A program made the position numbers and the translations under genes. This document shows, piece after piece, positions 30,817-32,373 of a DNA stretch of 64,000 bases. Source of the stretch: Bacteroidota bacterium (GTDB lineage Bacteria; Bacteroidota; Bacteroidia; J057; JADKCL01); contig JADKCL010000026.1 of the NCBI GenBank assembly GCA_016718825.1, positions 7,819-71,818 of the forward strand, written 5' to 3'. Numbering within the stretch: position 1 is the first letter of the stretch; each line of letters begins with the position of its first letter. The notes under the pieces are model-generated. The model saw nothing but the letters and a program-made list of their open reading frames with translations. It did no database searches and had not been told where the DNA came from.

Positions 30817-32373
30817 ATGAAACCAAAACTGTCGTTCATTGCACTATTGCTATTTGTTTTTGTCTTTTCTGCATGTGAGAAGGAGGTCCCCCCCCCCCAT
30901 TCTGATATGAATGGCAATTCGCCATCTATGTCGGCGGATTATTCCCCAAATCCTGACCAGCGCCTTACCACTGATCGAAGTTTGCAAATCTTGGCGCTGG
31001 GATTTACAGACTTGGTTGCTGATTCACAATTTGTGGATGCTCTTTATCGCACCATGCCTTGCGACGGATGGTTAGGCCTAGAAGAATTTGGAAGATATTT
31101 CAATGCTGCCACAGTCGATCGAAACCTTTACGCCGAAATGAATCTGGCGATCCGAAAGTATTTGAAGGACAATACCAATCGCGACTATGTGACACCGGCC
31201 ATCCAGCAATTGAAGATCGATGGGGTGCAATATGTCCCAGACATCACAATTCCCTATTTTGGAGAGACAAATCTCTTAATACCACCGATTGTGGCAGCTG
31301 GGGTAGATGATGAAAATGATCGCCTCACTGGTTATTTGGTGGCAGGGCGAGACATTGCTTTTTACGCTTCGTCCACGAGTCCATTACAAATGTTAACGAT
31401 TGAATCCGATCTTGTGGGTACCACCTATCAAGCACCAATGTTTGAGGGCGTTTCATCTGTTTTTTCAACTCTTCGCGCTCAATCGATTAGCTCAGAGGAG
31501 GCCAGAAATAGACCTATGATTGTGATTGCAGTGGGAGATGGACCAGACCCCAATCGAGAAAATGATCCATGCTACCAGTCGAATGGAGGTGGCGGCTGGA
31601 CGGGAGGCACAGGAAGTGGTGGAACTAGTGGGAGCGGGATCGGGTGCACCGTTGGTGCTGATGAGGACTGTGCTTATAAAACTGGACCGGTTAATTATCC
31701 GATGTGCATTGGTGGATGTGATCCAATTTTCACAAATACAAACCAATGTTTATCTACCGTATCCTTTGAATCAGGTCAATTATTTGCACCTCACAATAGC
31801 GGTTCCAATACATCCAAAGTCCGGTACATGATCAGCAAAATGAAAAATAATGGACTTAACGAACTGATGGGGGTTGTTGACAACCCAGCACCAAATGTCA
31901 TAGTTTCCAACCTTGGGTTGAACAAATGCCGAATCAAATTAGAAGATAGAAACTCTACAAATACAAGCCTTAATGCTGTAGTAAATTATACTCAACACAC
32001 TCTTCTACAAGAAATTTGCCAATGGAGCCCAACTTGGGGAGGCAATTCATTTGTGCTCGCTACAGGGTTTGATATTAATGCAAATGGAGAAGCCTTTGGA
32101 AACGCAACATCAACTTTTTGGATTTACAATCGGTACTGGATTACCATATACGAAGATGATTGGTGGGTCACGAATCCCAAGGAAATACCTGCTCCTGGCA
32201 TTACATATTTAACAAATGAAGAATACCACCAAATAAGGGCAACGGCATCAACTGATCTGTATTACAACGGATTCCTGAACCTTGATCTTGTAGGTTGTAC
32301 TGCCAATTTTTGTGATCCAATAAGCCTTAATGATGCCTATCCTGGAAATTTTGTTTTAAGGGTGCATGACTAA
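30817..32373 (+). CDS. Lipoprotein of unknown family (518 aa) with a 5' poly-C tract
   Basis: Signal/lipobox 'MKPKLSFIALLLFVFVFSAC'. Gly-rich linker 'GGGGWTGGTGSGGTSGSG'. Cys-rich middle. AT-richer than flanking genes. Confidence 0.8.
   Translation: MKPKLSFIALLLFVFVFSACEKEVPPPHSDMNGNSPSMSADYSPNPDQRLTTDRSLQILALGFTDLVADSQFVDALYRTMPCDGWLGLEEFGRYFNAATVDRNLYAEMNLAIRKYLKDNTNRDYVTPAIQQLKIDGVQYVPDITIPYFGETNLLIPPIVAAGVDDENDRLTGYLVAGRDIAFYASSTSPLQMLTIESDLVGTTYQAPMFEGVSSVFSTLRAQSISSEEARNRPMIVIAVGDGPDPNRENDPCYQSNGGGGWTGGTGSGGTSGSGIGCTVGADEDCAYKTGPVNYPMCIGGCDPIFTNTNQCLSTVSFESGQLFAPHNSGSNTSKVRYMISKMKNNGLNELMGVVDNPAPNVIVSNLGLNKCRIKLEDRNSTNTSLNAVVNYTQHTLLQEICQWSPTWGGNSFVLATGFDINANGEAFGNATSTFWIYNRYWITIYEDDWWVTNPKEIPAPGITYLTNEEYHQIRATASTDLYYNGFLNLDLVGCTANFCDPISLNDAYPGNFVLRVHD
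30888..30898 (+). repeat. C11 homopolymer inside the lipoprotein CDS, 6 codons after the lipobox Cys
   Basis: Read directly: gtc ccc ccc ccc cat (VPPPH). C10 gives att ctg ata TGA. C12 gives cca ttc TGA. Confidence 0.95.

Follow-up and report, generated by a model that had tools for sequence, protein, structure and literature searches.

A poly-C tract in a lipoprotein gene of an uncultured wastewater Bacteroidota lineage as a candidate slipped-strand switch

Could a run of eleven cytosines, placed a few codons after the lipobox cysteine of a predicted lipoprotein gene, serve a free-living member of the Bacteroidota as an ON/OFF switch? The question is raised by a 64,000-nucleotide (nt) stretch of DNA (contig JADKCL010000026.1 of assembly GCA_016718825.1, positions 7,819 to 71,818 of the forward strand), hereafter called the window, for which a first-pass annotation made from the letters alone had proposed a contingency locus, that is, a gene switched by slippage in a repeat. 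The organism belongs to an uncultured Bacteroidota lineage that was found in activated sludge, wastewater and biofilm metagenomes dated 2019-2025. Slipped-strand switches are textbook knowledge for pathogens and are poorly documented in environmental bacteria and in the Bacteroidota. We lean, with modest confidence, towards the tract being a slipped-strand switch of the lipoprotein gene in which the ON state predominates, and the evidence on both sides of this interpretation is set out below.

The C11 tract and its reading frames

Direct reading of the letters bore out the annotated tract, which consists of exactly 11 C at 30888-30898 on the forward strand. It is located within the sole long open reading frame (ORF) of the region, which spans 30817-32373 and encodes 518 amino acids, four codons downstream of the codon of the lipobox cysteine, Cys20 (TGT, 30874-30876), and the sequence around it reads TGT GAG AAG GAG GTC CCC CCC CCC CAT TCT GAT ATG. 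The features of this part of the window are as follows.

30817-32373, forward strand: lipoprotein gene of an orphan family, 518 amino acids, identified as an ORF and by relatives with a signal peptide and a lipobox
30817-30876, forward strand: signal peptide with lipobox, read from the sequence as MKPK, a hydrophobic core and V-F-S-A-C
30880-30887, forward strand: AAGGAGGT, a perfect Shine-Dalgarno-like octamer that codes for K-E-V and directly adjoins the C tract
30888-30898, forward strand: C11 homopolymer, the proposed slippage site, in codons 24-28 (third base of Val24, Pro25-27 and first base of His28)
30903-30910, forward strand: two off-frame TGA stops, at 30903-30905 for a gain of 1 nt and at 30908-30910 for a loss of 1 nt

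The shifted frames given in the annotation proved exact on re-reading. With C10 the frame continues as ATT CTG ATA TGA and stops after 4 codons at 30908-30910, and with C12 it continues as CCA TTC TGA and stops after 3 codons at 30903-30905, so that both terminate no more than 12 nt past the tract and a change of one repeat unit in either direction leads to loss of the product by frameshift to an early stop. When random in-gene positions of the same genome were examined, both shifted frames were found to meet a stop within 15 nt at 1.65% of them. The TGA of the -1 frame overlaps the in-frame ATG of Met31 (30907-30909), in the form ATGA. Re-initiation at Met31 in a C10 allele would yield a protein without signal peptide, and no record of the corresponding 488-amino-acid form was found on look-up.

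The tract was also compared with the genome background, using about 5400 non-overlapping ORF-genes called from the first ATG, with those touching junk runs of G or C excluded. These genes contain 239 Pro-Pro-Pro sequences. As CCC makes up 29.8% of the proline codons, 6.3 of them are expected to consist of CCC only, but CCCCCCCCC is used for one of the 239, and that one is the C11 tract. Counts of C runs in the genome drop about 5-8 fold per extra base up to a length of 6-7, and an isolated C11 is therefore not expected by chance. Homopolymers of at least 9 bases occur in just 21 ORF-genes, and of the G/C runs in well-supported genes the C11 tract has the greatest length and is alone in being close to a 5' end. 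Codon usage in this genome would not lead one to expect such a repeat, and a departure of this kind would count as a sign of selection for mutability.

The full-length homologues of the lipoprotein all have a signal peptide and a lipobox, and none of them has Pro-Pro-Pro, which is likewise absent from P0002, P0003 and P0012. In the sole orthologue read as DNA (L010), the corresponding sequence is TGT AAA AAA GAG ACC TTG CTA CCC TCA and contains no homopolymer. The annotation had argued that orthologues encoding Pro-Pro-Pro without a homopolymer would speak against a switch; the four homologues found lack Pro-Pro-Pro altogether, and from this comparison the C tract appears to be a derived feature.

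Tract length among assemblies and the C10 allele

The window assembly (G000) comprises 7.7 Mb in 73 contigs with 51% G+C and contains 351 G/C runs of at least 8 bases, most of them in junk clusters. The annotation had cautioned that homopolymer length errors occur elsewhere in this assembly, and the length of the C tract might likewise be a sequencing or assembly artefact, of the same kind as the cluster just past the window end. The C11 tract, however, is isolated, with no further run of at least 8 bases within 600 nt, it is in frame, and it is found letter for letter in MEGAHIT, metaSPAdes, Logan and other GenBank assemblies. Tract lengths were compared among consensus contigs, and Logan contigs drop minor variants. 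C11 is present in at least 11 independent assemblies, mostly short-read, from several studies and years; it was read in GCA_018005185.1, GCA_020049755.1, ERZ22666005 (MEGAHIT), SRR8831201, SRR28161541, SRR11088485, ERR10641136 and the window genome. Logan contigs from four runs of four studies (X2, X6, X8 and X10) cover 30511-31400 with zero differing letters and zero gaps. Over 4.4-6.6 kb, comparison of the C11 contigs with the window gives 0-11 substitutions and no indel, and in six sister contigs compared base by base all of these substitutions fall outside the lipoprotein gene. The modal tract length is 11, which is the ON frame. The artefact reading was rejected because C11 is reproduced across independent assemblies and assemblers, and we give it practically no credence; for the C11 site, the caveat of the annotation is thereby resolved.

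The cluster past the window end (G000:C26:72199-73634) begins 381 nt beyond it and is dense in poly-G and poly-C, with runs of up to 88 bases. About 25 similar sites occur elsewhere in the assembly, with runs of up to 293 bases. These clusters look like assembly junk from dark-cycle poly-G reads rather than biology.

A second tract length was found through the protein sequences. The 90% protein cluster of the lipoprotein includes a 481-amino-acid member that begins at Met38 and comes from contig L003 of ENA ERZ22157980, a metaSPAdes node with a k-mer coverage of 7.5. This contig starts 11 nt before the ATG and carries C10, and the gene caller places the start at Met38. When translated from the ATG, the C10 allele gives the signal peptide followed by CEKEVPPPILI and a stop, 30 amino acids in total. 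Over 2289 nt, one missing C is the sole difference between L003 and the window, and it is the only indel in about 36 kb of aligned sister contigs. A single invariant length everywhere, which the annotation had named as grounds against a switch, is thus not what was observed, as one assembly carries C10 and differs by nothing else over 2.3 kb. The C10 allele, known from this consensus contig, is probably real, because about a dozen reads underlie the consensus and the majority of them would have to share the error. The protein collection holds about 14 ON contigs against 1 OFF contig. Between near-identical sequences, tract length differs once, with a single low-coverage C10 contig on one side and at least 11 C11 samples on the other.

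Further searches were made for other tract lengths and other relatives. Among JGI metagenome contigs, an exact-pattern scan with a variable C gap gave no match, and an alignment-based scan gave one contig, which does not reach the tract. The contigs of P0005 begin inside the gene, a look-up of P0009 found nothing, and a scan of genome contigs found no relative.

A proposed slipped-strand switch and its alternatives

If the tract is a switch, it would operate as follows. A tract of 11 C (a length of 8 or 14 would equally keep the frame) would let the ribosome read through Val-Pro-Pro-Pro-His and produce the full 518-amino-acid prolipoprotein. Replication slippage, presumably at an elevated rate, would remove or add one C, translation would end at a TGA after 30 or 29 residues, respectively, and the mature protein would be lost; polarity may in addition lower the expression of the two downstream beta-barrel genes. 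A second slip would restore the frame and make the change reversible. ON would be the usual state in nature, and OFF cells would form a reservoir that could rise under selection, for instance by a phage or predator using the protein. In favour of this reading stand the tract with its two early off-frame stops, the recurrence of C11 in independent assemblies, the natural C10 allele, the scarcity of such tracts elsewhere in the genome, their absence from the homologues, and the location of the tract in a segment modelled as disordered. The gene also looks as a switched gene might be expected to look: it has the sole strict promoter match of the window, it is almost completely represented in 14 metatranscriptome runs, a barrel gene of the outer membrane follows it, and its cassette is an accessory one in an islet that varies from species to species in the genus.

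Every structural element of the contingency locus proposed by the first-pass annotation is in place, and the proposal is thus supported in part. The behaviour that defines such a locus, namely tract lengths that change often and reversibly in one population, is presumed here, and several observations weigh against the proposal. Exactly C11 is found in about 14 of the 15 contigs of the protein collection and in each of the four Logan runs, and the C10 allele is known from one low-coverage contig. No C12, C9 or C13 was seen among the contigs compared, unlike at classical contingency loci, where isolates differ freely in length. The genome has genes for MutS and MutL, which would be expected to limit slippage. 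The design is not repeated in any other gene, and no contingency repertoire was found in the genome; the other isolated G/C runs of at least 10 bases that were inspected are not clearly coding at 5' ends. Finally, no base difference was found within the gene among the six sister contigs. With a population so close to clonal here, a neutral tract of recent origin may have lacked the time to be broken by a synonymous change.

A tolerated proline linker, with CCC codons arisen by chance in a young clonal lineage and without any evolved switch, would account for several of these observations. The run would then mutate like any other homopolymer, and the C10 allele would simply have lost the function of the gene, or would stem from an error in the library or assembly; it would serve no adaptation and would not revert to any meaningful extent. 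An AlphaFold2 model built from a 5-sequence alignment, with a mean predicted local distance difference test score (pLDDT) of 41, leaves residues 17-44 unstructured (pLDDT 27-29) and places helices from residue 46 onwards. As modelled, the three prolines lie in this unstructured part, in a tether between Cys20 and the first helix, and changes in its length should therefore be harmless. The presence of C11 in nearly all samples, the mismatch repair genes, the lack of a comparable locus elsewhere in the genome and the low coverage of the sole OFF contig all agree with such a linker, as does the scant diversity in the gene, which leaves little time for selection on codon choice. On the other hand, all-CCC Pro-Pro-Pro is strongly avoided elsewhere in the genome, and a single synonymous substitution would suffice to do away with the weak point; it is rare for both shifted frames to stop so soon; an error in the consensus of a short-read assembly of about 12x would have to be shared by most reads; and the only change over 2.3 kb, the indel, hit a target of 11 positions among 2289. 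We regard the linker as possible, if somewhat doubtful.

The tract might instead be a recoding site, at which ribosomal frameshifting on AAGGAGGT and the CCC run, or slippage of RNA polymerase, gives several products or rescues out-of-frame alleles. The octamer adjoins the run, and the stop used in the C10 frame shares bases with the in-frame ATG of Met31. CCC-C is moreover known to favour +1 slippage, and in prfB and dnaX frameshifting is stimulated by a Shine-Dalgarno-like element located upstream. The zero frame, however, runs through 518 codons without a stop, and either shifted frame comes to an end within 3-4 codons, so that only a dead-end peptide would result and a role in recoding is unlikely; moreover, the homologues lack the run and, to our knowledge, the Bacteroidota make little use of Shine-Dalgarno pairing. 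We consider recoding very improbable, and a programmed ribosomal frameshift site was rejected as a candidate on account of the short shifted frames and the open zero frame.

The slipped-strand switch, to which we return, rests on a mechanism that is itself well known, and its design matches coding-region poly-G/C contingency genes and inlA of Listeria monocytogenes. The gene hpuA, which encodes a haemoglobin-receptor outer-membrane lipoprotein, has a coding G/C homopolymer. More generally, genes of Neisseria, Haemophilus and Campylobacter resemble the present one in having a G/C homopolymer of about 8-13 nt in the ORF of an envelope gene, where a one-base slip leads to a premature stop; their tract lengths differ between near-identical genomes, as is probably the case here for C11 and C10. 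These bacteria are host-adapted and have tens of such loci that vary freely in length between isolates, and C. jejuni is without mismatch repair, whereas here a single locus with one predominant length is found in a free-living Bacteroidota whose 7.7-Mb genome encodes both MutS and MutL. The poly-G tract of gonococcal pgtA is one such coding-region contingency gene (PMC2193922), and the contingency repertoires of Neisseria have been described (PMC5084427, PMC1097732).

Homopolymers at 5' ends have also been described as reversible inactivation switches, with a rate about 1000-fold above that of point mutation for inlA of L. monocytogenes (PMC2831843). The homopolymer of inlA is placed at the very start of the coding region of a surface protein, as the present one is in the gene of a putative surface protein (the frameshift peptide has 8 amino acids there and 30 here). 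Natural OFF alleles are found beside ON alleles, as is probably so here, and the organism is likewise proficient in mismatch repair and has few such loci. The inlA tract differs in being a poly-A of 7-8 nt in a Gram-positive pathogen, with a rate obtained from reporter fusions, whereas the present tract is a longer poly-C known from assemblies. In Bordetella pertussis (PMC1891110), a highly clonal species, poly-C/G tracts in or before surface-protein genes likewise have one common length with occasional variants, but many tracts were compared across cultured isolates there, against one tract across metagenome assemblies here. A slippage-prone run also controls vlp of Mycoplasma hyorhinis, porA and opc of Neisseria and tpr of Treponema pallidum; those runs, however, lie in the promoter spacer and alter transcription, whereas the present run is translated and would act by frameshift.

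Within the same phylum, Bacteroides uses site-specific DNA inversion by recombinases, without repeat slippage. The purpose would be the same, the stochastic ON/OFF control of surface molecules, but no inverted repeats and no recombinase gene flank the lipoprotein gene; the invertible promoters that vary surface structures in Bacteroides are reviewed in PMC12632263. In the literature collection that was searched, no homopolymer switch in a lipoprotein gene of the Bacteroidota was found described.

It is conceivable, although we put it forward tentatively, that this free-living wastewater Bacteroidota keeps a single coding poly-C switch on a strongly expressed, lineage-specific lipoprotein/beta-barrel complex of the outer membrane and that OFF variants sweep some plants, for instance where phages or predators act on the lipoprotein. 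If true, slipped-strand phase variation, known mainly from host-adapted pathogens, would also operate in an environmental bacterium whose phylum is otherwise known for invertible promoters. The organism recurs across years in public sludge metagenomes and metatranscriptomes, which makes this a testable case, and the ON/OFF ratio would be a marker to follow in public sludge time series. Shifts of this ratio with time or phage load could point to the function of the orphan complex. A ratio that stays constant throughout would instead teach that a locus can have the textbook architecture without being a contingency locus.

Other homopolymers of the genome were noted in the course of these comparisons. 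Two G9 runs (G000:C21:39992-40000 and G000:C2:169607-169615) are located exactly at junctions of two long ORFs in different frames and represent either assembly errors or frameshifted or phase-OFF genes. A/T runs of at least 8 bases within ORF-genes are concentrated in the first fifth of the gene, with 61 of 171, twice the number in each other fifth, although some of these may precede the true start, as the first ATG was used. This excess matches the 5' bias of homopolymers reported by Orsi et al. (PMC2831843).

The lipoprotein, its neighbours and the variable islet

The N-terminus of the 518-amino-acid product consists of MKPK, a 13-residue hydrophobic stretch and V-F-S-A-C20 and fits the lipoprotein pattern of the PROSITE PS51257 type; by this pattern, the product is a predicted lipoprotein and substrate of signal peptidase II. 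The signal peptides of P0003 and P0012 have the same layout, and P0012, although a distant homologue, keeps the FSAC box. No sequence match was found in Pfam, NCBIfam or PDB, and the matches in the ESM Atlas score at most 0.84 and are to be taken as leads only. A phmmer search over 1.84 billion cluster representatives found 4 relatives, and a word-indexed search found two homologues with 46-47% identity. A search of 40 related genomes, of which five belong to the same genus, gave no orthologue, and no paralogue was found in the genome itself or in these 40 relatives. A signal for surface export in the Bacteroidota, K-(D/E)2 after the lipobox cysteine, has been described (PMC5080379). The residues after Cys20, E-K-E, resemble this signal without matching it. 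The product is probably an outer-membrane protein and may be exposed on the surface.

The remaining features of the locus, upstream and downstream of the lipoprotein gene, are as follows.

30756-30787, forward strand: promoter-like element TTTG-N20-TAAGTTTG of the Bacteroidota -33/-7 type, separated from the ATG by 29 nt
32447-33040, forward strand: small outer-membrane beta-barrel protein of 197 amino acids with a signal peptide, 73 nt past the stop of the lipoprotein gene
33037-33630, forward strand: second small signal-peptide protein of 197 amino acids, ending in ...EKRF, a probable beta-barrel, overlapping the first by 4 nt

When both strands of the 64-kb window were scanned, the promoter-like element was the single strict match to TTTG-N19-21-TANNTTTG, a consensus which we take, from promoter studies in Bacteroides and Flavobacterium, to be that of Bacteroidota sigma-A promoters. 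A sigma-70 scan of the window was uninformative for this phylum, and Rfam gave no match in the window. Between 81 and 99% of the sampled words of the lipoprotein gene were contained in 14 metatranscriptome runs from at least 6 studies, some of these runs having 74-100 million letters. This suggests strong transcription of the gene in situ, with DNA carry-over possible, as the comparison was made without a neighbour-gene control.

The lipoprotein gene and the two barrel genes have the same orientation and probably form one operon. The first barrel has an Atlas feature score of 0.98 to outer-membrane beta-barrel and TraO clusters and a structural template-modelling (TM) score of 0.74 to 'outer membrane insertion signal' proteins. 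The second shows no detectable similarity to the first, and its gene has two paralogues in the genome with 40-42% identity (G000:C1:133803-137771 and G000:C19:9546-10286). The C1 paralogue follows another small signal-peptide ORF and is located downstream of an 818-amino-acid secreted protein. This arrangement suggests that pairs of such barrels recur as a module that accompanies surface proteins. In the orthologous loci L010 and L011, both 197-amino-acid genes are likewise retained after the gene of the lipoprotein.

The three genes are located between a 1993-amino-acid eCIS_core gene and a TPR gene, in the space from 29973 to 34137. The flanks are conserved in the genus, with 84-88% identity for the 1993-amino-acid protein in two same-genus genomes and 59-66% for the TPR protein. 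The corresponding space measures 1.3 kb in G003 and 3.2 kb in G001, where it holds an ATPase-like ORF, a 201-amino-acid ORF and a 275-amino-acid hydrophobic ORF, their identities being guessed from the translations. As the space between the conserved flanks differs within the genus, the lipoprotein cassette appears to be accessory and to lie in a variable islet. The only recognised part of the 1993-amino-acid protein (23991-29972) is eCIS_core (PF13699) at residues 88-153, and a strong hairpin terminator is found downstream of its gene at 29992-30016.

Between this terminator and the lipoprotein gene, at 30510-30541, lies a 32-nt element, GGACTCCGGAGGAGTC followed by AAACCTTTATAGAAAC, which has 8 copies in the genome, on both strands. 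Its hairpin stem shows compensatory substitutions (GGACTCC/GGAGTC versus GGACCCC/GGGGTC), and a second hairpin is located near 30562-30576. The element also occurs as separate short contigs in Logan runs, and it may be a small structured repeat, either like the repetitive extragenic palindromic (REP) elements or an RNA.

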